DNA of 11,850 nt from a virus (taxonomy: Duplodnaviria; Heunggongvirae; Uroviricota; Caudoviricetes), in the IMG/VR virus record IMGVR_UViG_2623620491_000015, positions 1 through 11,850 of that record; one strand, 5' to 3'. This document shows, piece by piece, positions 1 to 11,850 of the stretch. The notes below the pieces were generated by a model that saw only the letters and a list, made by a program, of their open reading frames with translations, was not told where the DNA came from and made no database searches. Positions within the stretch are counted from its first letter, which is position 1. Each line of letters begins with the position of its first letter. The position numbers and the translations under genes are program-made.

Positions 1-333
1 AAGCTCTAATAGCTCCGCAAATTCGCCTACACGCATCCTGCTGGTTGACTGGCCTATTACCACAAAGCCATTCCCGGAAAGGTTAGGAACAACGTCCTGC
101 TGCTTTAATGCTGCGGTAAACACACACTTCCAGCTTTCTGCATCCAGCCAGCGACCATGCCATTCAACCTGACGAGAGACGTCACCTAAGCAGGCCCATA
201 GCTTCCTGTTTTGGTCTAAGCTGCGGTTGCGTTGCTTAAACTCGACAATGATGTCTAAATCGCATGTCCTAAGGTACTGAATGGCGTTATATCTTATAGA
301 TTCATTGGTAAGGTGATATTTGACACATTTCAT
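1..333 (-). CDS. ninB: NinB (Orf-family recombination mediator), C-terminus runs off the left window edge; N-terminal ~34 aa differ from the lambda-type NinB
   Basis: Minus-strand ATG at 333-331 with GAGG 8 nt upstream. Own translation gives MKCVKYHLTNESIRYNAIQYLRTCDLDIIVEFKQRNRSLDQNRKLWACLGDVSRQVEWHGRWLDAESWKCVFTAALKQQDVVPNLSGNGFVVIGQSTSRMRVGEFAELLEL, open to position 1. From RNRSLDQ onward it matches NinB as I recall it. Not in the ORF track because it is edge-truncated. Confidence 0.75.
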   Translation of the reverse strand, partial: MKCVKYHLTNESIRYNAIQYLRTCDLDIIVEFKQRNRSLDQNRKLWACLGDVSRQVEWHGRWLDAESWKCVFTAALKQQDVVPNLSGNGFVVIGQSTSRMRVGEFAELLEL

Positions 334-826
334 TTTAATACCTCGCAAATTCGCCGAAACATTCATCCGCTTTATTTGCATATACTTTATGAGCTTCCTT
401 TGGGTCATCGTAAAACCCAAGATTAACTTTCCTCTTGTTGATTACGATTTGCGCCCTCCATTTTCTTGATTTCTTATCCCATGAAACGCCTTTATATCCT
501 GATTTGTTATTTGCCTTTTTGTTTACGTTTTGGATGTTTTGAGATCGAGTTGCCAATCTAAGATTTGCTATACGATTGTCATCCCTAACGAGATTTATGT
601 GGTCGATATCACTTTTTGGTAGACTGCCATTCATATAGAGCCACGCCAGCCTGTGTGCCTTATAAAGTTTTCCATCGACTTTTATTACCCAGTAGCCTTC
701 GCTACTCTTATGCCCTGCGATATCCCCAGCATTCATTCTCTGGCATTTCTTTACTTTCCATGTGAATTTCCCTGTTAACTCATCGTAGAGAAGGACTTCT
801 TTTAGTCTCTGCTGAGTTATTTGATT
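232..826 (-). mobile_element. Homing-endonuclease cassette inserted in the 5' part of ninB (HNH-AP2 coding segment plus a replacement ninB 5' end)
   Basis: NinB-like sequence sits on both sides: residues 1-32 at 922..827 and from residue ~35 at 231 downward. The intervening segment is visibly AT-rich compared with flanking DNA and encodes the endonuclease domains plus a new ninB start with its own SD. Boundaries are approximate. Confidence 0.5.
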
Positions 827-922
827 GATTGGTTTGGTTGGGTCTGGAAGGATTTGCTGTACTGCGTGAATAGCGTTCTGCTGATGTGCTGGAGATCGAA
901 TTTCAAAGGTTAGTTTTTTCAT
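335..922 (-). CDS. HNH (HNH_3) + AP2-domain homing endonuclease, fused in frame to the first 32 residues of lambda-type NinB
   Basis: Track ORF 335..940 starts at TTG; the ATG at 922 (MKKLTFEI...) has a purine-rich SD (GGGAGAGGGAAG) just upstream. Motif DIDHINLVRDDNRIANLRLATRSQN is HNH_3-like; SGYKGVSWDKKSRKWRAQIVINKRKVNLGFYDDPKEAHKVYANKA is AP2-like. The first 32 aa read like the NinB N-terminus. Confidence 0.8.
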   Translation of the reverse strand: MKKLTFEIRSPAHQQNAIHAVQQILPDPTKPINQITQQRLKEVLLYDELTGKFTWKVKKCQRMNAGDIAGHKSSEGYWVIKVDGKLYKAHRLAWLYMNGSLPKSDIDHINLVRDDNRIANLRLATRSQNIQNVNKKANNKSGYKGVSWDKKSRKWRAQIVINKRKVNLGFYDDPKEAHKVYANKADECFGEFARY

Positions 923-936
923 GACTTCCCTCTCCC

Positions 937-970
937 CCAAATAAAAAGGCCTGCGATTACCAGCAGGCCT
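937..970 (-). terminator. tR2-like intrinsic terminator between helicase and ninB region
   Basis: Perfect 8-bp inverted repeat aggcctgc / gcaggcct (947-954, 963-970) with an 8-nt loop. On the minus strand it is followed by TTTTATTTGG. Confidence 0.6.
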
Positions 971-995
971 GTTATTAGCTCAGTGATGTAGATGG

Positions 996-2372
996 TCATA
1001 CGTCAGCCCCTTGTGCATATCGTCTGCCACGCGCAGCAGGTGCATTTGATGCTGTGCAAATCTGTCTGGCTTCATCCTGGTCACATGCAACAAAGTGTCC
1101 GTTACAGAACCGCTGGTAAACCGTACCAAGCGAGCCAAAACGGTTTTTCGTCACGATGATTTCAGCAAATGGCGCGGCGCTACTGTTCTCGTCATATACC
1201 GCTTCCCGATAGAGCATGATGATTGAGTCTGCGTCCTGTTCAATGCTTCCTGAATCACGCAAATCTGCGTTTGTCGGGCGTTTGTTTGGTCGCTTCTCAA
1301 CATCGCGCGAAAGCTGACTTAGGGAGATAACAGGCGTTTTCAGGTCTTTCGCCATCGCCTTCAGGCTTCCGGAGATGTGAGCAATTGCTAGGTCGTTGCG
1401 GTCTGCTTTCGGCTTCTCAATCAGGCCAAGATAATCCGCCATGATTAGAGACAGGTTTGGATTTTCCTGTTTATGCCGTTCTGCGATTGAGCGTATTTCT
1501 TCGACCGATAACCGCGAGGCATCGACTACCCATACATCCAAATCTGCAAGCTGACTCATGCCGTTAGCAACACGCGCCCAGCCTTCGTCATCCATCGATG
1601 CAGGATTTCGCAGTACGCTAACCGACATCCTCCCGGCGTTGGCAATGCTTCGCTCTGCAATCTGCAATGCGCTCATTTCCATTGAGAAAATCAATACCCC
1701 GCGCCGGACGTCAGAACCAGGAATAACGCGGCTTGCAACGCCTTCGGCAATCTTCAGCGCCAGTTCGGTTTTCCCCATACCAGGACGAGCAGCGATTATC
1801 ACCAGGTCTTCTGCGTTCATCCCTCCGGTGATGGCATCAAGTTCTTCGATTCCGGTCTTCAGGGTATCGGACTCTTCTCCGTTCCTCAGACGCCTGTCAA
1901 GCGTGTCAGTGTAGTCAGTGATGATTTCCCCTAACCGTACAGGTTTAACCTCGTCACGGGGCTTTCTGATAGCTGAGAGACGTTTTACAAGTTCATCCAT
2001 CGCCTGACTCGATGCGTCGATGGTTCCGCTCTGAATTGGTTCACGCATTTCATCCATGATTTCCAGCACCAGACGGCGGTGATAGTTATCCGCGACCATT
2101 CCGGCATATCCCTTCAGGTTTGCGGCACTCGGGCAGTTTTTGCTGGTCATCAGGATTGACGTGAAATGCTCCTCTCCGCATTCCTCAGCAACCATCAGCG
2201 CGTCGATTAGGTTTCTGTTTCGCGCCTGCTTGCGGATAACCTCGAAGGCTTTCCGGTAGAGCGGAATTGAAAACGCTTCCGGCTCCAGCGTTGCCAGAAC
2301 GTCACTGGCGGTTGGAGTTAATCCACCAATCAGCAAGCCACCGATAACGCTCGCTTCGATATCCTGTCTCAT
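996..2372 (-). CDS. Replicative DNA helicase, DnaB family (P22 gp12-like)
   Basis: 458-aa ORF with Walker A ([15 protein letters not shown]) and DnaB-type RecA-fold motifs ([29 protein letters not shown]). ATG at 2372 overlaps the upstream gene's stop (ATGA). Confidence 0.9.
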
Positions 2373-3316
2373 GCAATCCCCCTGTCTGCAAACTTCCCTT
2401 CCCGTACTCCCGTTAACGAATCTTCCCTCAGCAGGTAATCAAAATCTGCCGTCCAGCCCGTGTCGTTGTCTCCGAAGTAAAACGGCTTGGCCTGATGCAC
2501 AAACGCCCTGACATACGCTCTGAAACCGTCCACGTTTGGCGTTTTCAGTTGCGGAATGATTTTCTTCAGGCGACGTTTGCGTTTCTCGTTGACCGCAACA
2601 GCGTGTGGCAGTCTGTCACCGACTTCGGTGTTGTAGGCATTCAGGAAGGATTCATAGTCGATTCGTTCTGCCTTGCGACGTTCAGGTTTAACCTGCCCAT
2701 CGCCTCCCCCATTGGGGGGTAGGGGGGTATTATTTATATTCTTGTTAATACCTTCTTGTTCATGATGTGCGGTTGTTTGTGCGGCTTCATGTGCGCTTTC
2801 ATGTGCGGCATGTACGCTGAAAGCCGCGCCATTACTGGCTTCGTCATGTGCGGCGTCATGTGCGGTTGTTTGTGCGGCTTCATGTGCGGGTGAATTGTCC
2901 ATTTTTTGAGCATATTCATGGTAATTTGTGATGGTGATCACACGACCTTTTTGCTTCTCTCCATCAATGGTGATCATCCCCTCTTTCACAAAAACCTGAA
3001 GCATCCGCTCAACCTGATCACGGCTTGCCGGCTTGCCATGCCTGTCGCATAACTGAAGACCTAAATCAGCTGCTGTCACAACCAGTTGACCGGGTTGCAG
3101 ATGCCATTCATGACCTTTGAAATTCGCTTTGTATGGCTTTCTGGCGGCATTCAGGAGAAGGTTTTCCCACAGGGTGCGAAGATAAACATCTTTCGCCCAT
3201 GACTGTTTCAGAATGCTCCGGTACAACGGAATGTAACCAGTTTTCTGGTTCTCCATCCTGTTGCTCCTGCGCTCGTGTGCGGCGCTGAAATCGTAGATTT
3301 TTGCTGTGTTGCTCAT
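2369..3316 (-). CDS. Replication initiator protein (lambda O / P22 gp18-like) with a repetitive Ala/His-rich linker
   Basis: 315-aa ORF. The N-terminus [10 protein letters not shown] resembles lambda O (MTNTAKILNF). It sits immediately upstream of, and translationally coupled to, the helicase gene. The internal repeat region coincides with the iteron-like DNA repeats. Confidence 0.8.
2766..2894. repeat. Eight copies of a 12-bp direct repeat TGTGCGGnnnnn in two clusters of four; candidate ori iterons
   Basis: Units at 2766, 2778, 2790, 2802 and 2847, 2859, 2871, 2883 (tgtgcggttgtt, tgtgcggcttca, tgtgcgctttca, ...). A G-rich then AT-rich stretch follows at 2710-2760 (ggggggtaggggggtattatttatattcttgttaata). 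This is the same arrangement as ori-lambda inside O. Confidence 0.55.
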
Positions 3317-3318
3317 AA

Positions 3319-3591
3319 CTACCTGCCTTGACGAAAGACCTTAAGAACATCGTTAAACTGACTTACGGATATGTCTTCTTTGAGCAGCTTTTCCAGAAAT
3401 GCGTTTGGAATGAACGTATATCCATCCTCTTTTGGTAGAGACGGGAGCAACGCCCTCGCCTCAGCCTTCAGAAGCTCAGTTCTGGCAACTTTCACAAAAG
3501 AGATTTGAGTTCTTTCATCAATGGAACGAAGGAAGCGCAAACGCTTAGCTTCTTTGTGTGTATCAGGTGGATTAAAGCCTTTGTTTCGCAT
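3319..3591 (-). CDS. Hypothetical protein (90 aa) between cII and the O-like gene
   Basis: Internal ATG of track ORF 3319..3756 at 3591 with GAGG SD. The upstream part of the track ORF overlaps cII in another frame and is discarded. The stop abuts the O-like start. Confidence 0.55.
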   Translation of the reverse strand: MRNKGFNPPDTHKEAKRLRFLRSIDERTQISFVKVARTELLKAEARALLPSLPKEDGYTFIPNAFLEKLLKEDISVSQFNDVLKVFRQGR

Positions 3592-3602
3592 ATAATTACC
3601 TC

Positions 3603-3669
3603 GTTGGATGTTGTTAAAATTCCATTTGTATTTGATCAGAACGCTCGGTTGCCGCCGGGCGTTTTTTAT
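3603..3669 (+). ncRNA. oop: oop-like antisense RNA overlapping the 3' end of cII
   Basis: Plus-strand TATAAT at 3591-3596. The 3' end CAGAACGCTCGGTTGCCGCCGGGCGTTTTTTATT matches the lambda oop terminator as I recall it. It is antisense to the last ~55 nt of cII. The 5' end is an estimate. Confidence 0.6.
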
Positions 3670-3910
3670 TGGTGAGTCCATCAAGCGCATACTTAAAAGC
3701 CCTGCTAATCGGACTGATATCTGATGCCATTCCGAAAGCACACAAGACCGAGGCAATAAATCTCCAGTCCGTTCTGCTTATCTTCGATTCATGACAGCCA
3801 ATCATCTTTGCCAGACCGCGCTGGGTAAGTGTTGACAGGTTGATGAGTAAATCGGTTTCTGCGCGATCAACATCGCGCTGTGATAGTTTGCTGTAACTTG
3901 TTTGTTCCAT
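3614..3910 (-). CDS. cII: Transcriptional activator CII
   Basis: 98 aa. The C-terminus LTNKKRPAATERSDQIQMEF and the central ...ESKISR... match lambda CII. Position between cro and the replication genes fits. Confidence 0.9.
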   Translation of the reverse strand: MEQTSYSKLSQRDVDRAETDLLINLSTLTQRGLAKMIGCHESKISRTDWRFIASVLCAFGMASDISPISRAFKYALDGLTNKKRPAATERSDQIQMEF

Positions 3911-3925
3911 TTCTTACTATTTCCA
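3888..3925 (+). promoter_or_regulatory. PRE-like promoter with CII-box repeats (TTGC-N6-TTGT) overlapping the cII start
   Basis: ttgc tgtaac ttgt at 3888-3901, immediately beside the cII ATG (complement of 3908-3910). Same geometry as lambda PRE, oriented toward cro and cI. Confidence 0.5.
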
Positions 3926-3974
3926 TAGGTAAATAATCACTAATACTCATCTTTCGATGAGCGATTAATTAGTT

Positions 3975-4010
3975 ACCGCGTTGTCGGCGGTGCAGATTGA
4001 TAAAGAGCGG
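3975..4010 (-). promoter_or_regulatory. nutR (boxA + P22-type boxB)
   Basis: Minus strand reads CCGCTCTTTA (boxA, 4001-4010), then ACCGCCGACAACGCGGT (boxB hairpin, 3975-3991), between cro and cII. Confidence 0.7.
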
Positions 4011-4019
4011 ATCCGCTTA

Positions 4020-4235
4020 TTAAGCGGCTTTGTGTTCCGGCGGGAACACGTCATCAAGACTGACTTTTGCGCCTAACTTGTTTAGGCACGCAACAAGAGC
4101 ACGGCATGTTTTAAGGTCTGGGAAGCGACGACCAGATTCCCAATGTCCGATAGCTCCCTGTGTGCATCCAACCGCCTTAGCAAGTGTTGTTTGAGAGATA
4201 TTCAGTGACTCTCGATATTTTCGTAGGTTGCTCAT
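4020..4235 (-). CDS. cro: Cro-like HTH repressor (71 aa)
   Basis: Internal ATG at 4235 with GGAGGG SD directly upstream. HTH region SQTTLAKAVGCTQGAIGHWESGRR. Divergent from cI across the operator region. The 5' extension of the track ORF is discarded. Confidence 0.8.
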   Translation of the reverse strand: MSNLRKYRESLNISQTTLAKAVGCTQGAIGHWESGRRFPDLKTCRALVACLNKLGAKVSLDDVFPPEHKAA

Positions 4236-4346
4236 ATGCCCTCCATAGTAACCATGAAACAATAATACGATATGTACTTTTGGAATGCAAACAAAAAATA
4301 CATCTTGTGCATGGATGGTTTTAGTACATAGCGTAATAATAAGGAT
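4236..4346. promoter_or_regulatory. OR region: divergent PR/PRM with repeated ~17-bp operator motif
   Basis: Operator-like sites at 4262-4280 and 4321-4339 are inverted copies (AGTACATAnCGTAnTA) and are partly palindromic. PR candidate on the minus strand: -35 TTGCAT (complement of 4285-4290), 17 bp, -10 TATTAT (complement of 4262-4267). cI may be nearly leaderless. Confidence 0.6.
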
Positions 4347-5006
4347 ATGAAAATGAAATGGTATGAACTGGCTAGATCCAGAATGAAAGAGCTCGGCATA
4401 ACTCAAGAGAAGTTAGCTGAAGAGCTTGGTATGACGCAGGGTGGAATTGGTCACTGGTTGCGCGGATCTCGTCATCCATCTCTTGACGAGATTGGTGTGG
4501 TGTTTAAATACCTTGGTATTGATAACGTCTCATTCAACCACGACGGTACATTTTCACCTGCTGGCGAATACTCATCTGCCCCCGTTAAAAAACAATATGA
4601 GTACCCTGTTTTTTCTCATGTTCAGGCCGGGATGTTCTCGCCTGAGCTTAGAACCTTTACCAAAGGTGATGCGGAGAGATGGGTCAGCACAACCAAAAAA
4701 GCCAGTGATTGTGCGTTTTGGCTTGAAGTTGAAGGTAATTCCATGACCGCACCAACAGGATCCAAGCCAAGCTTTCCTGACGGAATGTTAATTCTCGTTG
4801 ACCCTGAGCAGGCTGTTGAGCCAGGAGATTTCTGCATAGCCAGACTTGGCGGTGACGAGTTTACCTTCAAGAAACTGATCAGGGATAGCGGTCAGGTGTT
4901 CCTACAACCACTAAACCCGCAATATCCAATGATCCCATGCAATGATAGCTGTTCCGTAGTAGGGAAAGTTATCGCCAGCCAGTGGCCTGAAGAGACATTT
5001 AGTTAA
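4347..5006 (+). CDS. cI: CI repressor (LexA-like S24 autocleavage domain); lambda-type C-terminal domain with a non-lambda N-terminal HTH domain
   Basis: The C-terminal ~125 aa ([22 protein letters not shown]...[11 protein letters not shown]) are near-identical to lambda CI as I recall it. N-terminal HTH is [25 protein letters not shown]. Alternative start ATG at 4353 with AAGGA SD. Confidence 0.9.
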
Positions 5007-5038
5007 CAGCCTCACCACTCTAAAACACACAACAATAA

Positions 5039-5066
5039 CCCGACCTTAGCGTCGGGTTTTCTTTTT
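5039..5066 (+). terminator. Intrinsic terminator downstream of cI
   Basis: cccgac-cttagc-gtcggg hairpin followed by TTTTCTTTTT. Confidence 0.7.
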
Positions 5067-5085
5067 CCAAAATATAAATCAATAA

Positions 5086-5160
5086 AATACAAAGTGTTAT
5101 AAAAAACCAACCACATTTAGAACATTTTGTATTGACTCAATAAAGTACACATCGTACTAT
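5086..5160 (+). promoter_or_regulatory. OL/PL: leftward early promoter with operator sites
   Basis: -35 TTGACT (5132-5137), 17 bp, -10 TACTAT (5155-5160). Site AGTACACATCGTACTAT (5144-5160) matches the OR motif. Inverted pair aatacaaagtgtt (5086-5098) / aacattttgtatt (5121-5133) lies upstream. Confidence 0.6.
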
Positions 5161-5206
5161 TTAGCCATCAGCAGGAAGCTGGAAGCCAAACGGAACAGAT
5201 TGGCAG

Positions 5207-5240
5207 GCTCTTTAACTTCGATGGGGCGCTGACAAAGCGC
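5207..5240 (+). promoter_or_regulatory. nutL (boxA GCTCTTTAAC + P22-type boxB GCGCTGACAAAGCGC)
   Basis: boxA-like at 5207-5216 and a perfect 5-bp stem / 5-nt loop hairpin at 5226-5240, in the PL leader upstream of N. Confidence 0.75.
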
Positions 5241-5359
5241 AAACAGATACCAAACGAGATGGGTTTGGCGGTGATGTGAATTGCAGCTGCAACGACAGCA
5301 ACCAGAAGATCAGCACCTGGCGCATCACCACCAAAGCCATTTCACATGAGGAAAATATC

Positions 5360-5668
5360 ATGACGGTAATCGTGTACGGAAAATCAACATTTGCAGGAAA
5401 TGCCAAAACTCGCCGTCATGAGCGGCGCAGAAAGCTGGCTATCGAGCGTGATGCTATATGCAACATCATCGATTCGATCTTCGGCACAGACAGTGAGGAA
5501 CCTGTTCAGGAAGCCCCGAGAAAGCGTTTAAGCATTTCTGAAAAAGCAATATCACTCGGCATCATTAGCAAATCAAATACAGATGCGAATAGCGGAAGCG
5601 TTTGTTTGCCTGAAGTTGCACTGTATGCTGCTGGTTACAGAAGGCAAAAACTAATTACAGCGAGGTAA
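5360..5668 (+). CDS. N: Antitermination protein N (P22 gp24-type arginine-rich motif)
   Basis: ATG at 5360 with GAGGA SD. N-terminus MTVIVYGKSTFAGNAKTRRHERRRKLAIER matches the boxB-binding peptide of P22 N. The upstream part of the track ORF is discarded. Confidence 0.85.
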   Translation: MTVIVYGKSTFAGNAKTRRHERRRKLAIERDAICNIIDSIFGTDSEEPVQEAPRKRLSISEKAISLGIISKSNTDANSGSVCLPEVALYAAGYRRQKLITAR

Positions 5669-5670
5669 AA

Positions 5671-5949
5671 ATGAAGCCTAGCATAACAATCAAGCCAGCG
5701 AGAGATAATAGCAGGAACCGCCGCAGAGAGGCCAGGAAGGCAGAAAGAGCAGAGAAGGAAAACAAGAGCCGGGAGGAGAGAAAGGCAGAGATTTTGGAAA
5801 AAGGAGGATTGGCTGCCGTGAGGGGTGAAAAAGCAGCTGAATTAGCAGTAGCTCACGAAAAGACAGAGATTGACAATAATTCTGGTGGAGATGCAATGTT
5901 TAAAGTTGTCAATCACGCCCATCAACGAAACCCCAAAAAGAAATGGTAA
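5671..5949 (+). CDS. Hypothetical highly charged (Arg/Lys/Glu-rich) 92-aa protein
   Basis: ATG 3 nt after the N stop with GAGG SD. The DNA is strongly purine-rich on the coding strand. Ends just before a terminator. Confidence 0.55.
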   Translation: MKPSITIKPARDNSRNRRREARKAERAEKENKSREERKAEILEKGGLAAVRGEKAAELAVAHEKTEIDNNSGGDAMFKVVNHAHQRNPKKKW

Positions 5950-5952
5950 TCA

Positions 5953-5977
5953 ACCCGTCCAAGACGGGTTTTTTATT
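5953..5977 (+). terminator. Intrinsic terminator (tL1-like)
   Basis: cccgtc-caa-gacggg hairpin followed by TTTTTTATT. Confidence 0.7.
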
Positions 5978-6006
5978 GCAAGCAAACCACTTATTTGAGA
6001 TGAGAT

Positions 6007-6372
6007 ATGGAAGAACAAGCAAACAAGATTCTCGTAGAACTACTGCAAAAAGCCAGCAATGGAATAGACGCGGCTGTTTCATTTAGCCAGGCACAGATTC
6101 CTGATGTCATCCATCAGCTTTTGATGTGGCACGCCGTATCATCAGCTGGAATTCAGGCTATCTGTGTATTGGTGATTATAGCGTGTGTTTATCTGATGAT
6201 TTTTGCATGGAATAAAGGAGATGATGCGGATGTTGTTCTTTTATCGCTACTTGTAACATCAGGAATAGCGATTACTTCTATTGTTGTTTTCTTCAATTAT
6301 TTCGACTGGCTGAAAATCTGGCTTGCTCCAAAACTTTACCTTATCGAATATGCAGCATCATTGGTTAAGTAA
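6007..6372 (+). CDS. Hypothetical small membrane protein (two predicted TM helices)
   Basis: 121 aa. Hydrophobic segments IQAICVLVIIACVYLMIFAW and VVLLSLLVTSGIAITSIVVFF. Sits where lambdoid phages carry sieB/ral-type accessory genes. Weak SD. Confidence 0.55.
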   Translation: MEEQANKILVELLQKASNGIDAAVSFSQAQIPDVIHQLLMWHAVSSAGIQAICVLVIIACVYLMIFAWNKGDDADVVLLSLLVTSGIAITSIVVFFNYFDWLKIWLAPKLYLIEYAASLVK

Positions 6373-6376
6373 TTTC

Positions 6377-6402
6377 AGGCCGCATAGTCGGCCTTCATTT
6401 TT
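6377..6402 (+). terminator. Intrinsic terminator
   Basis: aggccg-catagt-cggcct hairpin followed by TCATTTTT. Confidence 0.6.
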
Positions 6403-6404
6403 GG

Positions 6405-6547
6405 CATAAACAACAGAATAAACACTGCACTGTGTATTCATTCCAACGAGTGAATACACGGAGCAATGTCGCTCGTAACTAAACAGGAGCCGACTTGTTC
6501 TGATTATTGGAAATCTTCTTTGCCCTCCAGTGTGAGGGCATTTTTTT
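6405..6547 (+). ncRNA. Candidate structured non-coding RNA or leader bounded by two terminators
   Basis: No ORF. 9-bp perfect inverted repeat gtgtattca / tgaatacac (6432-6440, 6451-6459), additional pairing acgag / ctcgt, and a terminal intrinsic terminator gccctc-cagtgt-gagggc + TTTTTTT (6522-6547). Confidence 0.35.
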
Positions 6548-6559
6548 GACGGAGGAAAT

Positions 6560-6871
6560 ATGAAATTACGTGTCTGGCATATCCCGCAAGTACCTATGAA
6601 GCCGTTCATTGTAGAAGTGGCAAGTGTTGAAGAGGGTGTTCGCCTGATGGACGCACTGGCTGATTATGACGCCTTTCAGTATGACAACAACATCAAGCCT
6701 GATTACTGCAATGCTAACGGCCTTGAGATGTGGGATGAGAGCCTTACCGATGAAGATTTATCAGAGATGGGGCTTACTGATCGCTGGGTGGATTGGTACA
6801 GCGAATGCCAATGTTACGACGACCCACGTAAATATCTCGAAAGCCTGAAAGAAGAAACATCAGCCGCCTAA
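6560..6871 (+). CDS. Hypothetical acidic 103-aa protein
   Basis: ATG with GGAGG SD. Strongly acidic composition (many D/E, Trp-rich). Sits in the ea10/ral-equivalent position. Confidence 0.65.
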   Translation: MKLRVWHIPQVPMKPFIVEVASVEEGVRLMDALADYDAFQYDNNIKPDYCNANGLEMWDESLTDEDLSEMGLTDRWVDWYSECQCYDDPRKYLESLKEETSAA

Positions 6872-6946
6872 GCGCGGCTTTACCGCATACCAATAACGCT
6901 TCACTCGAGGCGTTTTCGTTATGCAATCAAATATAAGGAGTTACCC

Positions 6947-7081
6947 ATGATGCACTTTCAGCTCGCGGGTAGCGGCGTCATGTCCGCTTTCTACCCGCAC
7001 GAATCTGAATTATCACGCCGAGTTAAACAATTAATCAGAGCAGCAAAGAAACAACTGGAGGCGTTATGCGCAATGAAATAG
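6947..7081 (+). CDS. cIII: CIII-like FtsH-inhibitor peptide (44 aa)
   Basis: Not in the track (<60 aa). AAGGAG SD 7 nt upstream. MMHFQLAGSGVMSAFYPHESELSRRVKQLIRAAKKQLEAL resembles the lambda CIII core (AIAGWPVAGCPSESLLERITRKLRDGWKRL). Confidence 0.7.
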   Translation: MMHFQLAGSGVMSAFYPHESELSRRVKQLIRAAKKQLEALCAMK

Positions 7082-7218
7082 CCATTAATCACCAGATGCT
7101 TCGTGCGGCACAAAACAAAGCAGTAATAGCCAGATTTATTGGTGATTCAAAAATGTGGCTTGAAGCAAATAAAGCGATGAAATCAGCTATCAACCTTCCG
7201 TGGTATCGCAGGAAATGA
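7066..7218 (+). CDS. kil: Kil-like peptide (50 aa), putative host cell-division inhibitor
   Basis: Not in the track. GGAGG SD; the start overlaps the cIII-like 3' end. Motif ARFIGDSKMW resembles lambda Kil as I recall it. Synteny cIII then kil. Confidence 0.5.
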   Translation: MRNEIAINHQMLRAAQNKAVIARFIGDSKMWLEANKAMKSAINLPWYRRK

Positions 7219-7293
7219 GTTTTACAGATAACTGGTCAGACGAAGAATTCATTCGTCAGATGAAAGAATTAATCGGTAACGAAGGAGATATTC

Positions 7294-7464
7294 ATGTCAC
7301 TTGCAACCACAGTGAAGGAGAGCAAGTTACAGAGACGCATGTACACGCAGCAGGCGTTAATGTATCGCCAGAAGGGAGATCGTGAAGGTGTTCGCGTATT
7401 TTTAAATGCGGCAAAGACTGAAGTATTAAATCAGCGTTATTTCCTTGGGCCGTGTCCATTCTGA
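7294..7464 (+). CDS. Hypothetical 56-aa protein (Arf-like position upstream of the annealing protein)
   Basis: AAGGAG SD 6 nt upstream of the ATG. Plausible helical sequence MSLATTVKESKLQRRMYTQQALMYRQKGDREGVRVFLNAAKTEVLNQRYFLGPCPF. A competing ORF 7215..7385 in another frame is coupled to kil by ATGA. Confidence 0.5.
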   Translation: MSLATTVKESKLQRRMYTQQALMYRQKGDREGVRVFLNAAKTEVLNQRYFLGPCPF

Positions 7465-7472
7465 GGTGAATT

Positions 7473-8180
7473 ATGGATTTGAATAAATTCGATGAGCCAT
7501 TCAGCCCTGAAGATATCGAATGGCGAATACAGCAAAGCGGTAAAACACGCGATGGCAAAGTGTGGGCTATGGTGCTGGCTTATGTAACGAACCGGGCAAT
7601 CATGAAACGCCTGGACGATGTTTGCGGCAAAGCAGGATGGCGCAATGAATACCGCGATATTCCCAACAACGGCGGCGTTGAATGCGGCATATCAATAAAG
7701 ATTGATTCCGAATGGGTAACCAAATGGGATGCTGCTGAAAACACGCAGGTAGAAGCCGTCAAAGGTGGTCGTTCCGGTGCAATGAAGCGCGCTGCCGTTC
7801 AGTGGGGAATCGGTCGGTATCTGTATAACCTTGAGGAAGGTTTCGCACAAACATCTCTCGATAAAAAGCAGGGATGGCACAGGGCAAAACTCAAGGATGG
7901 AACAGGATTTTACTGGCTCCCTCCATCGCTGCCGGGATGGGCAATACCAGCATCAGATAACAAACCATCACCAGAAAATACCAACCAGAAATCTCCATCG
8001 GTTGACTGCGAACAAATCCTGAAAGACTTCAGCGATTATGCGTCAACAGAAACTGACAAGAAAAAACTCATCGAGCGTTATCAGCGTGACTGGCAATTAA
8101 TGGCTGGCAATGAGGAGGCGCAGGCTAAATGCGTTCAGGTAATGAACATCAGAGTTAACGAACTAAAACAGGCGGCATAA
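7473..8180 (+). CDS. Single-strand annealing protein, Rad52/Sak family
   Basis: 235 aa with Rad52-like motifs (RLDDVCGKAGW ... GAMKRAAVQWGIGRYLY). Directly precedes ssb. Confidence 0.7.
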   Translation: MDLNKFDEPFSPEDIEWRIQQSGKTRDGKVWAMVLAYVTNRAIMKRLDDVCGKAGWRNEYRDIPNNGGVECGISIKIDSEWVTKWDAAENTQVEAVKGGRSGAMKRAAVQWGIGRYLYNLEEGFAQTSLDKKQGWHRAKLKDGTGFYWLPPSLPGWAIPASDNKPSPENTNQKSPSVDCEQILKDFSDYASTETDKKKLIERYQRDWQLMAGNEEAQAKCVQVMNIRVNELKQAA

Positions 8181-8687
8181 ATGGCAAGCAGAGGCGTAAA
8201 TAAGGTGATTATCCTTGGTCGGGTAGGACAAGACCCGGAAGTTCGATACTCACCATCAGGTACAGCGTTCGCTAACCTGACAATAGCCACGTCAGAACAA
8301 TGGCGAGATAAAAATACTGGCGAGCAAAAGGAATTGACTGAATGGCATCGTGTTGCTGTATCCGGGAAACTGGCTGAGGTCGTGGGGCAGTATGTGAAAA
8401 AAGGTGATCAGATTTATTTCGAGGGAATGCTGAGAACCAGAAAGTGGAAAGACCAGTCAGGGCAAGACCGTTACACAACCGAGGTTCATGTCGGAATTAA
8501 TGGCGTGATGCAAATGCTTGGCGGCATTGGCGACAGCAAACAACAAGCAGCCAGCAGGCAATCACAGAAGCCACAGCAGCAATCATCACCAGCACAACAC
8601 AACGAACCTCCGATGGATTTTGACGACGATATACCCTTTGCACCAGTAACTCTCCCCTTCCCTCGTCACGCTATTCACGCAATTTAA
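8181..8687 (+). CDS. ssb: Single-stranded DNA-binding protein with a 15-aa extension after the DDDIPF motif
   Basis: OB-fold N-terminus ([23 protein letters not shown]...), Q/S-rich linker, then MDFDDDIPF followed by [15 protein letters not shown] before the stop. Confidence 0.85.
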
Positions 8688-8700
8688 TCAGGAGAAAATC

Positions 8701-8997
8701 ATGCCAGCGCCTCAGTATGGTGCGGATGACCCGCGCCGCTGTTCCGGCAATTCCGTATCGGAGGTGCTGGATAAATTCAGGAAAAACTACGACCGGATAA
8801 TGTCGCTACCGCAGGAAACGAAAGAGGAAAAGGAATTTCGCCATTGTATATGGCTTGCAGAGAAAGAAGAACGCGAGCGAATTTACCAGACATCAATCCG
8901 ACCATTCCGCAAAGCCACATATACCCACTTCCCTGAATATATCGACCCTCGCCTGCGTAATTACCGCTCACGCTATGGCGCTATCAGTAATGACTGA
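8701..8997 (+). CDS. Hypothetical protein (98 aa)
   Basis: ATG with AGGAG SD. Confidence 0.6.
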
Positions 8998-9007
8998 GGA
9001 ATTTACT

Positions 9008-9172
9008 ATGAGAGGACTTGCATACAATCCCGGCATTCTTCCGGCAGAAATGATTATTCGCCAACGCGTAAAGCCAATGCCATCGAGAGAGGAATTGCTT
9101 AAGAGAAATTCTTTTCAATCAGTAAATCAAAACAAATATCTGAATGCGATGTTGCGGAGTGGGAAGAAATGA
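9008..9172 (+). CDS. Hypothetical protein (54 aa)
   Basis: ATG at 9008 with GAGGA SD. The upstream part of track ORF 8855..9172 overlaps the previous gene and is discarded. Confidence 0.5.
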
Positions 9173-9645
9173 AACAAATGTCACTAATTGAGATGGATGG
9201 ATTCCTGAAAGGTAAATGCATCCCCCGAGATTTAAAGGTTAACGAAACAAACGCTGAATATCTGGTGCGTAAGTTCGGTGAACTTGAATCAAAACTAGAA
9301 ACGGCGTTGCGGGAGTGTCGTTCTGCTGGAATCACGATTGATAACCTTGAGGCCAAGTGCGCGGCGCTGGCTGCTGAAAAAGAGACATTTGCTGTCGAGT
9401 GTGCGGCCGCAAAAATCGCCATTGCATACCTGAAATCAGGACGACAGGATTTTTCGCTTAACACCCCAGCCACTGACGCTTTCCTGGCTGAAGTCCGGGC
9501 TAAGGCGTTTGATGACCTTTGCGCGGCGTTCGTTAAGCACGCGTCGGTGTCCGGGCTGGACGATGGCGACTGCGTTACGGTGAAAGAGGCGACTGACGCC
9601 CTGCTGCATTGTGCGGAACAGCTTCACGAGGGAGTGCATTCATGA
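9169..9645 (+). CDS. Hypothetical protein (158 aa)
   Basis: ATGA overlap with the upstream gene. Predicted helical, Ala-rich. Confidence 0.6.
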
Positions 9646-9875
9646 GCAACCTACTACCATGTCCATTCTGTGGCGGCGCAGCGCACGTTGCCAGCGAAGC
9701 AGATCACCCTGAATATGGCTCTGGCGGTCGATTCTATTTCGTTCGATGCGGTACGTGTCGCGCTCAATCTGGTAGCAAATATGCAGCGCCTGGAAATGAC
9801 TGCGCGATTTTTTATTCAGAGGTTAGAGCAGAGTGGAATCAGCGAGCAAAGGAGGCAACCAGTGAGCCAGATTGA
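9642..9875 (+). CDS. lar: Lar-family restriction alleviation protein (zinc-ribbon)
   Basis: ATGA overlap with the upstream stop. [12 protein letters not shown] ... RCGTCR ... EWNQRA matches the Lar/RalR pattern (CPFCG ... C..C ... WN.R). Confidence 0.65.
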   Translation: MSNLLPCPFCGGAAHVASEADHPEYGSGGRFYFVRCGTCRAQSGSKYAAPGNDCAIFYSEVRAEWNQRAKEATSEPD

Positions 9876-10413
9876 TTATCAGGCACTGCGTGCTAAGGCA
9901 GAAAAAGCAACGTGTGGTGTGTGGTCGCTCGAATATGGAGAGAGCCGATTTGATTGTGATGATGCGCTAATTCATCGTGACGTTGTTGGATATCTTCCCA
10001 TTTGCAGAATTGAAGGAGCGCATCCAGAAAGCGGTTTCGATGAAGATTTCCAAATGGAACAGCAGGCCAATGCTGAATTCATCGCCGCAGCCAATCCGGC
10101 TACTGTGCTGGCATTACTGGATGAACGGGAAAGGAACCAGCAATACATCAAATCCCGCGACCAGGAGAACGAGGAGATTGCGTTAACGGTAGGGAAGTTG
10201 CGCGTTGAGCTTGAGGCAGAAAAACAGCGGGCAAAGGATCTGTTTATGGAAAATGCTCGGCTTAAGTCAGGTATAGCCGGTCTGATACACCTCGGTATTC
10301 GATATGCAGATGTTGAGGTCATGAGAATTGCTGGAGATGCCCAGCTTTCTACCCCATGCACTGACAGCATCATAAACAGCATTGCAACAGGCATTCGCAT
10401 CAAAGGAGAGTGA
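9862..10413 (+). CDS. Ead/Ea22-like protein
   Basis: GTG start with AAGGAGG SD 7 nt upstream. N-terminus SQIDYQALRAKAEKATCGVW is typical of the Ea22-like family. The part of the track ORF upstream of 9862 overlaps lar in another frame and is discarded. Confidence 0.65.
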   Translation: MSQIDYQALRAKAEKATCGVWSLEYGESRFDCDDALIHRDVVGYLPICRIEGAHPESGFDEDFQMEQQANAEFIAAANPATVLALLDERERNQQYIKSRDQENEEIALTVGKLRVELEAEKQRAKDLFMENARLKSGIAGLIHLGIRYADVEVMRIAGDAQLSTPCTDSIINSIATGIRIKGE

Positions 10414-10615
10414 TATGAGCAGGAATATGGGTTTGTAAAAGATAACGCTTGTGAAAATGCTGAATTTCGCGTCGTCTTCACAGCGATGCCAGAGTCTGTA
10501 GTGTCAGATGATGACCGTACTCAAACATCGGGTTGAGTATTATCTTACTGTTTCTTTACATAAACATTGCTGATACCGTTTAGCTGAAACGACATACATT
10601 TCAAGGAGTTTATAA

Positions 10616-10897
10616 ATGCGTATCAATGAGTTAGAGTCTGAGCAAAAAGATTGGGCGTTATCAATGTTGTGCAGATCCGGTGTCTTGTCTCCATGCAGAC
10701 ATCACGAAGGTGTTTATGTAGATGAAGGTATAGATATAGAGTCGGCATACAAATATTCAATGAAGGTTTATAAGTCTAATGAAGACAAATCCCCATTCTG
10801 CAATGTGCGAGAAATGACTGATACCGTGCAAAATTATTATCACGAGTACGGTGGAAACGATACTTGCCCTCTCTGTGCAAAACATATAGATGATTAA
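10616..10897 (+). CDS. Hypothetical Cys-rich 93-aa protein in an AT-rich island (moron-like)
   Basis: AAGGAG SD. Visibly AT-rich compared with flanking DNA. Cysteines include a C-terminal CPLC pair. Followed by an intrinsic terminator. Confidence 0.6.
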   Translation: MRINELESEQKDWALSMLCRSGVLSPCRHHEGVYVDEGIDIESAYKYSMKVYKSNEDKSPFCNVREMTDTVQNYYHEYGGNDTCPLCAKHIDD

Positions 10898-10917
10898 ACC
10901 AAATATTACATAACAAT

Positions 10918-10944
10918 CCTCGCACTCGCGGGGATTTCTTTTAT
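10918..10944 (+). terminator. Intrinsic terminator
   Basis: cctcgc-actc-gcgggg hairpin followed by ATTTCTTTTAT. Confidence 0.6.
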
Positions 10945-10985
10945 CTGAACTCGCTACGGCGGGTTTTGTTTTATGGAGATGATAA

Positions 10986-11153
10986 ATGCACTTCCGAGTC
11001 ACAGGTGAATGGAATGGAGAGCCATTCAACAGGGTTATCGAAGCAGAGAACATCAACGACTGCTATGACCACTGGATGCTATGGGCGCAGATAGCACATG
11101 CAGACGTAACCAATATTCGAATTGAAGAACTGAAAGAACACCAAGCCGCCTGA
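10986..11153 (+). CDS. Hypothetical protein (55 aa)
   Basis: Not in the track. ATG with GGAG upstream. The stop lies inside the terminator hairpin. Confidence 0.45.
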   Translation: MHFRVTGEWNGEPFNRVIEAENINDCYDHWMLWAQIAHADVTNIRIEELKEHQAA

Positions 11154-11168
11154 TGGCGGTTTTTTATT
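11146..11168 (+). terminator. Intrinsic terminator
   Basis: ccgcc-tgat-ggcgg hairpin followed by TTTTTTATT. Confidence 0.6.
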
Positions 11169-11179
11169 GGAGACAAGAA

Positions 11180-11524
11180 ATGTCAGATTTGGCTATGAAG
11201 GTTTTGAAATGGCAATCAACTGGCGATGTTGGCATCAGTAGCGCAACTCTTGCCTCAATCGCATGTGGCCTGAAAAAGAATATCTATGGTCATCACTTCG
11301 GCGCTCCCCATGACGCAGCAGACTTTCGGCGATGCGTTGCACTTGTTGAGCAGATTCCAGAAATCAGAGATTCATTCGACAAGGTTGCAAAGCGCGTTCC
11401 GGTATTCAAAGGCATCCTCAACGAATGGGATTCCCTCGTCGCTCTGTTGAAGTCTGAAATGAAGACGTACGGGAACAAAGCACCAGAGACTTACAGAAGA
11501 ATCAGCGAGCTACGCAAGGACTAA
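11180..11524 (+). CDS. Hypothetical protein (114 aa)
   Basis: ATG at 11180 with GGAGA SD. The 9-codon upstream extension in the track overlaps the terminator and is discarded. Confidence 0.6.
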   Translation: MSDLAMKVLKWQSTGDVGISSATLASIACGLKKNIYGHHFGAPHDAADFRRCVALVEQIPEIRDSFDKVAKRVPVFKGILNEWDSLVALLKSEMKTYGNKAPETYRRISELRKD

Positions 11525-11584
11525 CCACAGCCTCACACTCGATGAGGCCTGTTCATTGCTCAATGATATCCAGACCTACCATCG

Positions 11585-11607
11585 CCGCATCAATGCGGTT
11601 TTTTATT
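11585..11607 (+). terminator. Intrinsic terminator
   Basis: ccgcat-ca-atgcgg dyad followed by TTTTTTATT. Confidence 0.55.
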
Positions 11608-11649
11608 GCCTGATTTACAGGTTCGATTCCCTATTCGGAGATAGCACTC

Positions 11650-11850
11650 ATGCAACACGAACTACAGCCTGATTCACTGGTTGATTTGAAATTCATCATG
11701 GCCGATACTGGCTTCGGTAAGACCTTCATCTATGACCGGATTAAGTCCGGCGACCTGCCTAAAGCCAAAGTTATCCACGGGCGAGCAAGATGGTTATATC
11801 GTGACCATTGTGAATTCAAAAATAAGCTCTTAAGCCGCGCCAATGGGTAA
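11650..11850 (+). CDS. xis: Excisionase / AlpA-family DNA-binding protein
   Basis: 66 aa. FIYDRIKSGDLPKAKVIHGRARW is an AlpA/Xis-type winged-helix motif. The stop codon is the last three bases of the window; an integrase is expected just beyond. Confidence 0.7.
   Translation: MQHELQPDSLVDLKFIMADTGFGKTFIYDRIKSGDLPKAKVIHGRARWLYRDHCEFKNKLLSRANG

Follow-up and report, generated by a model that had tools for sequence, protein, structure and literature searches.

The window, by which we mean the whole stretch of 11,850 nucleotides analysed here (positions 1 to 11,850 of IMG/VR record IMGVR_UViG_2623620491_000015), comes from a lambdoid phage or prophage, and all of its genes listed below lie on the + strand. 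Between the kil gene and the gene for a Rad52-type single-strand annealing protein, it carries two small overlapping open reading frames (ORFs), termed ORF A and ORF B, which encode 56 amino acids each. The features of the locus are the following.

4347-5006, + strand: cI
5276-5668, + strand: N
6560-6871, + strand: gp17-type exclusion gene
6947-7081, + strand: cIII (Pfam cIII, E=2e-30)
7066-7218, + strand: kil, lambda-type FtsZ inhibitor peptide, upstream neighbour of ORF A (Pfam Lambda_Kil, E=1.7e-20; phrog_2055)
7216-7218, + strand: TGA stop codon of kil
7215-7218, + strand: ATGA junction at which the start of ORF A (ATG, 7215-7217) overlaps the kil stop
7215-7385, + strand: ORF A, 56 amino acids, MSFTDNWSDEEFIRQMKELIGNEGDIHVTCNHSEGEQVTETHVHAAGVNVSPEGRS (phrog_2123, E=4e-40)
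7215-7293, + strand: N-terminal part of ORF A, codons 1-26, MSFTDNWSDEEFIRQMKELIGNEGDI, apparently constrained (variant pattern, pN/pS and in-frame indels)
7282-7287, + strand: AAGGAG Shine-Dalgarno (SD) sequence of ORF B, inside A codons 23-25, with a 6-nt spacer to the ATG
7294-7464, + strand: ORF B, 56 amino acids, HkaM family, MSLATTVKESKLQRRMYTQQALMYRQKGDREGVRVFLNAAKTEVLNQRYFLGPCPF (phrog_1723, E=4.5e-34)
7294-7385, + strand: A/B overlap, 92 nt, covering B codons 1-31 and A codons 27-56 plus stop
7473-8180, + strand: Rad52-type single-strand annealing protein gene (Pfam Rad52_Rad22, E=5e-26), starting 8 nt past the stop of ORF B
8181-8687, + strand: SSB gene of the recombination module (Pfam SSB, E=1.6e-36)
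8701-8997, + strand: Abc2 anti-RecBCD gene (Pfam Anti-RecBCD_p2, E=3.5e-61)

The Abc2 gene completes an HK75-type Rec module; the classes of such modules are set out in PMC12315714. Within this layout, the elements named by the original prediction, namely the joining of frame A to the kil stop by ATGA, the consensus AAGGAG in front of frame B and an overlap of about 90 nt, are all present in the sequence. ORF A has only a poor SD of its own (AGGA, 1 nt before the ATG), and a second SD-like AAGGAG occurs in the region at 7317-7322. No significant RNA fold was found around the ribosome-binding site of ORF B (z=-1.1). At the stop codon of ORF A, the window-type allele carries a terminator-like hairpin that is confined to this allele and is not conserved. 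Peptides derived from the translations include SFTDNWSDEEFIR and ELIGNEGDIHVTCNHSEGEQVTETHVHAAGVNVSPEGR for ORF A, and MYTQQALMYR, VFLNAAK and TEVLNQR for ORF B.

Both ORFs are already known at the annotation level. Over 701 nt around the site, the window is 98.6% identical to phage mEp235, and HK022, HK97, Sf6, H-19B and many Stx phages carry the sequence of the locus as well. The annotations of mEp235, HK022, Sf6 and HK97 include both ORFs, with gp30 and gp29 of Sf6 corresponding to A and B, respectively. Each falls into a PHROG family, ORF A matching phrog_2123 (HK97 gp42.1 / Sf6 gp30) over residues 1-52 and ORF B matching phrog_1723 (HK97 gp42, Sf6 gp29, HK620 HkaM) over residues 1-56, i.e., its full length. 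The unit is also abundant: the 250 nt comprising A and B are present in 1112 of 5426 complete Escherichia coli genomes (~20%). Searches of the literature on gp42.1 of HK97, on hkaM and on overlaps among kil/erf genes found no functional work on the two ORFs other than the HK620 Sak4 paper, and no experimental basis was found for the label 'recombinase' that PHROG and RefSeq attach to the HkaM family. HkaM-family protein is a better name than 'recombinase' for the product of ORF B.

The window contains 134 ORFs of at least 30 amino acids, and ORFs of such length are therefore common by chance; their presence alone proves nothing, so the reality of A and B rests on comparison with other loci. 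Such comparison is very discriminating here, because ORF B lies in the +1 frame relative to ORF A, with codon position 3 of B coinciding with position 1 of A and position 3 of A with position 2 of B, and a substitution silent in both frames is consequently almost impossible.

Selection in the two reading frames

Sequence comparison marks ORF B as a genuine and widely conserved gene. A profile search recovered homologues in 96 protein clusters, with identity down to ~32%, from Escherichia, Salmonella, Enterobacter, Citrobacter, Serratia, Pantoea, Yersinia, Erwinia and Kosakonia. An alignment of 32 homologues shows nine invariant columns (S10, A21, R25, E43, N46, F50, L51, P55 and F56), the C-terminus is conserved as NQRYFLGxCPF, and both the motif E-x-(L/I)-N-x-x-x-F-L...P-F and the length of 56-62 amino acids are those of the HkaM family; HkaM of HK620 itself aligns with the B-family profile at an hhalign probability of 99.65% (E=4.5e-25). 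Variation points in the same direction, with 22 of the 41 variants in the B-only stretch being synonymous (P=3e-5). The SD and ATG of ORF B are kept in all lineages, with GAAGGAGG, GAGGA or CAGGAG as the SD-like motif in diverged ones, and this includes lineages in which no ORF A stands in front of B (S9-5, Erwinia EhrS_59, Yersinia L020, L227/L228 and HK620). In every case, B lies 7-14 nt upstream of an ERF, Rad52_Rad22 or AAA_24/Sak4 gene, the window representing the Rad52-type case.

The plausible helical product that had been expected of frame B finds a counterpart in the AlphaFold model, in which a two-helix hairpin (residues 7-27 and 30-51) is predicted confidently, with a pLDDT of 91.8. 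A fold search of this model against the PDB yielded nothing but generic helical hairpins, with E>=1 in every case.

The main sample for the analysis of variation comprised 113 IMG/VR loci, chosen by exact match to a 20-mer from the A-only part without use of the overlap and containing 54 unique A+B modules. It replaced an earlier IMG/VR scan with a B profile, which had yielded only loci with 100% identical B and was biased toward B; that scan serves here only to document variation of the A tail and a nonsense allele.

Upstream of the B start, ORF A bears the marks of a coding sequence. In the A-only stretch of the 20-mer sample, 16 of 19 variants fall on codon position 3 of A (P=7e-6), and between the window, Pseudocitrobacter (L019) and Enterobacter (L221) loci the N-terminal part of A shows a pN/pS of 0.20-0.49 at saturated synonymous sites. 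Indels in this part preserve the frame, as exemplified by a 15-nt deletion in phiKp_30 and by tandem duplications of 21 and 42 nt. Furthermore, the TGA of the upstream gene overlaps the start of A in 113 of 113 loci, irrespective of whether kil, a c3-like gene or some other gene stands there; a c3-like gene, not kil, directly precedes A in about half of the sampled loci, and in L019 the junction reads GTGA instead of ATGA. The poor SD of A implies that its translation depends on presumed coupling to the upstream stop, most likely by ribosomes that terminate on kil and reinitiate at the ATGA.

A different pattern prevails in the overlap. Among 17 overlap variants in the 20-mer sample, 12 alter A and are silent in B, one alters B and is silent in A, and four alter both, compared with about 20%, 23% and 48% expected for the same three classes under random mutation (P=7e-6 for the excess of B-silent variants). 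Between lineages, frame B has a pN/pS of 0.22-0.57 over the overlap and frame A one of 1.2-5.9, and the stop codon of A moves among alleles, giving products of 52, 53, 56 or 60 amino acids. ORF A is also interrupted in nature: one allele (L068) carries Q37* (CAA>TAA, 7323), which is silent in B, and in an Enterobacter prophage (L222) the loss of 1 nt terminates A at codon 13 and leaves B intact. Purifying selection in both frames, as expected of dual coding, was not observed over the overlap; the substitution pattern indicates that only B is under protein-level selection there and that the 30-codon tail of A is unconstrained. As judged from these comparisons, ORF A would be genuine only in its first ~26 codons.

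These results bear on several statements of the original prediction. Its impression that the second half of A is not protein-like is matched by the substitution pattern of frame A. It had named homologous loci with a single open, coding-type frame as the finding that would count against it, and for the overlap such loci exist, with only B open and evolving as coding sequence. The description of the two ORFs as mutually exclusive, in turn, does not hold as a property of the sequence, because different ribosomes can read two frames of one mRNA. Of the outcomes it had listed, translation of both ORFs appears to fit best, with a coding signature in A upstream of the B start and none in its overlapping tail; that one of the ORFs is spurious does not apply to B or to the 26 N-terminal codons of A, and applies in effect to the 30 C-terminal codons of A.

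Mosaic organization and fused alleles

ORFs A and B behave as a single exchangeable unit. Many loci match the window only over 7215-7464, which is exactly the interval from the start of A to the stop of B, and all combinations were found of an upstream kil or c3-like gene, a B allele of window or Sf6 type, and a downstream gene of P22-type Erf or Rad52 type. There is another junction within A itself, at about codon 17-20, from which point a 35-amino-acid type differs from the A+B type. The N-terminus of A (MSFTDNWSDEEFIRQM...) recurs behind kil or behind a c3 gene like that of P22, in each case with the stop/start overlap, and it also heads the stand-alone 35-amino-acid ORF MSFTDNWSDEEFIRQMNKMLNQHKEQEKDDDSDSE, which in Gally, HK140 and SEN22 is followed by another gene and RecT. 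Diverged forms of the A N-terminus stand before B in SPN9CC, Pseudocitrobacter L019 and Enterobacter L221. A 49-amino-acid ORF before B in Erwinia/Pantoea phages was considered as a further homologue of A (DFDFIRAL vs DEEFIRQM) and rejected at an hhalign probability of 1%. The overlap is best read, from these sequence comparisons, as a probable scar of the joining of a B cistron, together with its ribosome-binding site, to a short A gene.

In a minority of loci the two ORFs are fused. In HK97 as deposited, 2 extra nt join the first 43 residues of A to the last 40 of B (gp42.1, 83 amino acids), and the same 2 nt put the ATG of B out of frame. At least nine other natural A-B fusion variants occur in public assemblies, mostly as singletons, with one of them (P0031) on 36 contigs; in the 20-mer sample, 1 of 73 B-type loci is fused, namely HK97 itself. 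The fusion junctions differ in each variant, and shifts of A into the third frame are similar in number (about 7 vs 9-10), a pattern expected of random indels in prophages or assemblies. In an AlphaFold model of one fusion (P0051), the A part reaches a pLDDT of only 52-63, and no confident packing of the A helix on B was seen.

Interpretation of the locus and alternative readings

Taken together, the locus most probably holds two distinct, real cistrons that belong to the early-left (pL) recombination module of lambdoid phages, with no programmed frameshift and with the overlapping tail of A as a by-product, a reading to which we assign a probability of roughly 0.8. Ribosomes that end at the kil stop would restart at the overlapping ATGA and translate A, whose selected product would be a short acidic peptide of the first ~26 residues (MSFTDNWSDEEFIRQMKELIG...) at the position occupied by Arf in P22. 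Translation of ORF B would start separately, from a strong SD and an ATG of its own in the +1 frame, giving the predicted 56-residue helical hairpin from a gene directly upstream of an Erf, Rad52-type or Sak4 gene. Because the ribosome-binding site of B lies inside A, the A frame runs over the first 31 codons of B until it meets a stop, and its 30-residue tail would be a translated by-product that is not selected as protein, while A and B would travel as one mosaic unit bounded by the start of A and the stop of B. The analysis shows the layout of the locus, its homologies, the patterns of selection and the limits of the mosaic unit; translation of both ORFs and the coupling between kil and A are what we infer from the sequence. 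Their position suggests that A and B may serve as accessories to phage recombination.

The first alternative is true dual coding, in which the tail of A or its open length would be functional and selected, for instance by linking expression of B to translation of kil and A. B always lies in the +1 frame relative to A, and in all A-bearing lineages examined (window, Sf6, phiKp_30, SPN9CC, L019 and L221) A remains open for 26-31 codons past the B start, compared with closure of the equivalent frame after 4-22 codons in the seven lineages that lack A (P=0.005 by a Mann-Whitney test that makes no correction for phylogeny). The lineages compared are, however, not phylogenetically independent: Sf6 and phiKp_30 share the 5' part of B with the window, which leaves the window, SPN9CC, L019 and L221 as a quasi-independent set (28-31 codons). 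Moreover, synonymous resampling of B did not find the open length of the A tail unusual (P=0.15-0.42 per lineage; Fisher combined P=0.22), placing it within chance for the protein sequence of B. With a tail sequence that is not conserved, overlap variants that mostly alter A and not B, a shifting A stop and natural nonsense and frameshift alleles of A also against it, dual coding appears unlikely. The difference in open length could hint at weak selection for ribosome transit across the B start; the data do not require such selection.

In a second alternative, ORF A would be wholly spurious, its conserved first ~50 nt being a recombination boundary or linker between modules, or an untranslated leader that contains the ribosome-binding site of B. 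The near-identity of the first ~50-57 nt across otherwise different modules, the mosaic junction at about codon 17-20, the poor SD of A and the frequency with which gene callers skip A would all be in keeping with such an origin. A linker or leader does not, however, account for the concentration of variation at A codon position 3, the low pN/pS in L019 and L221 at saturated synonymous divergence, the ATGA or GTGA overlap with the upstream stop in every locus irrespective of the upstream gene, or indels in multiples of three, and this alternative must be considered distinctly improbable.

Of similarly low probability is the proposal that the run of A over the ribosome-binding site and first helix of B is kept open so that ribosomes from kil and cIII cross the B start, thereby setting B expression or slipping +1. 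If it were true, B expression would be set by occlusion or by unfolding of the mRNA, or an Arf-like-HkaM fusion would arise as an occasional third product, and the fused alleles of HK97 and of the P0031 lineage would represent a genetic 'hard-wiring' of that fusion product.

The weakest alternative is that the internal AAGGAG promotes a programmed +1 (or -2) frameshift by which ribosomes would pass out of A and into B, as the original prediction had suggested, and which would yield a fusion of ~82 amino acids besides A and B: HK97 encodes exactly such a fusion, the other natural variants indicate that fusion is tolerated, and AAGGAG occurs twice in the region, but the junctions are scattered with third-frame shifts about equally common, HK97 is the only fused locus among those sampled, five diverged A-bearing lineages share no invariant run of at least 5 nt over the overlap, the A stops (UCG UGA for the window, CCA UAA for Sf6, in a sequence that varies among alleles) allow no +1 tRNA re-pairing, Rfam gave no match in the window, and the SD and ATG of B persist throughout the lineages and B occurs without A, so that programmed shifting is very improbable.

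With two separate cistrons as the preferred reading, the arrangement is an ordinary one of overlapping cistrons left by the joining of mosaic modules. It carries little weight as a discovery, both ORFs being annotated in near-identical phages and the overlap behaving as a by-product of module joining, and its value lies more in how the annotations should be read: ORF A as a short peptide at the Arf position, the meaningful part of which is the first ~26 residues, and HK97 gp42.1 as an indel-generated fusion and not a typical gene product. In addition, the abundance of the A+B pair and its constant adjacency to a phage annealing-protein gene make it a reasonable and cheap target in the search for unrecognized accessory factors of recombination or recombineering by Erf, Rad52 or Sak4.

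Comparison with known systems

The closest relatives of ORF A are, within phrog_2123, HK97 gp42.1, Sf6 gp30 and the HK022 gp38 homologue, which share with it the ATGA coupling to kil and the overlap with the gp42/gp29 gene; HK97 differs in being fused, and the window has the common unfused arrangement. For ORF B, HkaM of HK620 (NP_112046) offers the nearest known counterpart, with the same position in the pL operon directly upstream of the annealing-protein gene. In contrast to B, it belongs to a 62-amino-acid subtype and directly follows kil through an ATGA overlap, with no ORF A before it. HkaM was first called 'arf' purely by position and was later renamed and described as an orphan (PMC5928155). 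HkaM was dispensable for oligonucleotide recombineering by Sak4 and SSB (PMC5928155), so that a recombination role of B is a putative one.

The Arf protein of P22 (PF17585, phrog_2445), which helps Erf-mediated recombination and is non-essential (PMC12315714), resembles ORF A in being small and acidic and in having its gene between those of kil and the annealing protein, and it shares with A an N-terminal (F/W)SDEEFI followed by an acidic stretch. By hhalign, residues 6-27 of A align with residues 4-25 of Arf at a probability of 53-55% and a pairwise E of ~1e-4, over only 21-22 N-terminal columns, and the match to the PHROG Arf family is marginal (E=0.04). The Pfam model Phage_Arf (gathering score 27 bits) gives P22 Arf itself 121 bits and leaves A unreported even at E<=1. 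Unlike A, Arf possesses a conserved C-terminal half (NLAAERQNP..W.EFAGYYS), and P22, unlike the window, has no B gene. One public source labels an A protein 'accessory recombination function protein'; on present evidence, A may be described as Arf-like in position and motif, a weak resemblance at the sequence level, and is not filed here as a member of the Arf family.

Programmed frameshifts stimulated by an SD-like sequence, such as those of prfB (+1) and dnaX (-1), together with the -1 shift of lambda G/GT, provide a further comparison set. Like these, the A/B pair has an SD-like sequence inside the first ORF and a second frame that is open downstream; unlike them, it has no conserved shift site or spacing, and B exists independently with a conserved initiation site of its own (AAGGAG, 6 nt, ATG), such that its frame does not depend on a shift. 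The direction required from A to B is +1, which rules out a mechanism of the dnaX or G/GT type.

A final parallel is found in Rz/Rz1 of lambda, out-of-frame overlapping genes in which both frames are functional and conserved across the overlap. As with A and B, two cistrons in different frames occupy the same lambdoid DNA, and the downstream one starts in the +1 frame; the difference is that both frames are conserved in Rz/Rz1, whereas in the overlap of A and B only B appears to be constrained.

Allelic variation in the overlapping frames

The deposited HK97 sequence shows a fusion of ORF A, the upstream small frame, with ORF B, the HkaM-family frame that overlaps it.

L002 1816-2067: A/B locus of HK97 (AF069529), identical in sequence to locus L160

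Relative to all other alleles, the HK97 record contains two additional bases, a C and a G spaced 7 nt apart, through which the first 43 residues of A are joined to the last 40 of B in the 83-aa gp42.1, and which also place the ATG of B out of frame. This insertion represents either a genuine mutant allele or a sequencing error dating from about 2000.

In three lineages that lack A (L005, L020 and L227), the frame that A would occupy across the start of B stops just 4 codons past that start; this is the minimum found in synonymous resampling of B, for which medians ranged from 7 to 16 codons.

Within the constrained N-terminal part of A (equivalent to window 7242-7268), proteins P0004 and P0011, from prophages of E. 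coli and Salmonella Chester, carry in-frame 21-nt tandem duplications giving two or three copies of EFIRQMK. In phiKp_30 this region has lost 15 nt (DNWSD), likewise in frame.

Phages of Erwinia, Pantoea and relatives carry a different ORF ahead of B, 49 aa long and ATGA-coupled to B.

L007 1055-1204: 49-aa ORF
L223 1055-1204: 49-aa ORF
L225 1055-1204: 49-aa ORF

Its C-terminal DFDFIRAL(Y/F)EM resembles DEEFIRQMKEL of A; despite this likeness, homology between the two is unsupported (hhalign probability 1%).

Annotation of A, B and other window genes

In RefSeq (phage records NC_019708, NC_005344, NC_002167 and NC_002730) and in PHROG, ORFs of this type, 52-62 aa long, are named 'recombinase', A and B alike and hkaM of HK620 included. 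No support for this label on A/B-type ORFs was found; it seems to be an annotation artefact that has been passed from record to record.

335-940, minus strand: HNH_3 and AP2-domain endonuclease gene, 201 aa
996-2372: DnaB-like replication gene
2369-3316: O-like replication gene
8855-9172, plus strand: listed ORF with TTG start and DUF2737 match

The endonuclease gene adjoins the replication genes, and similar HNH genes occur here and there in Rec modules at the related loci L225, L226, L227 and S9-5, which suggests mobile homing endonucleases. The TTG ORF overlaps abc2 by about 140 nt; its DUF2737 match is limited to residues 52-104, and the true gene, the homologue of HK97 gp38 and HK620 hkaI, probably begins near 9008.

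Hairpin at the stop of A

7375-7403, plus strand: terminator-like hairpin (stem 7381-7396, then TATTTTT; -9.1 kcal/mol, z = -3.0)

This hairpin falls exactly at the stop codon of A, internal to B. Sf6-type, L019 and L221 alleles lack it. In HK620, a putative terminator, tL2D, is annotated at a similar place within hkaM.
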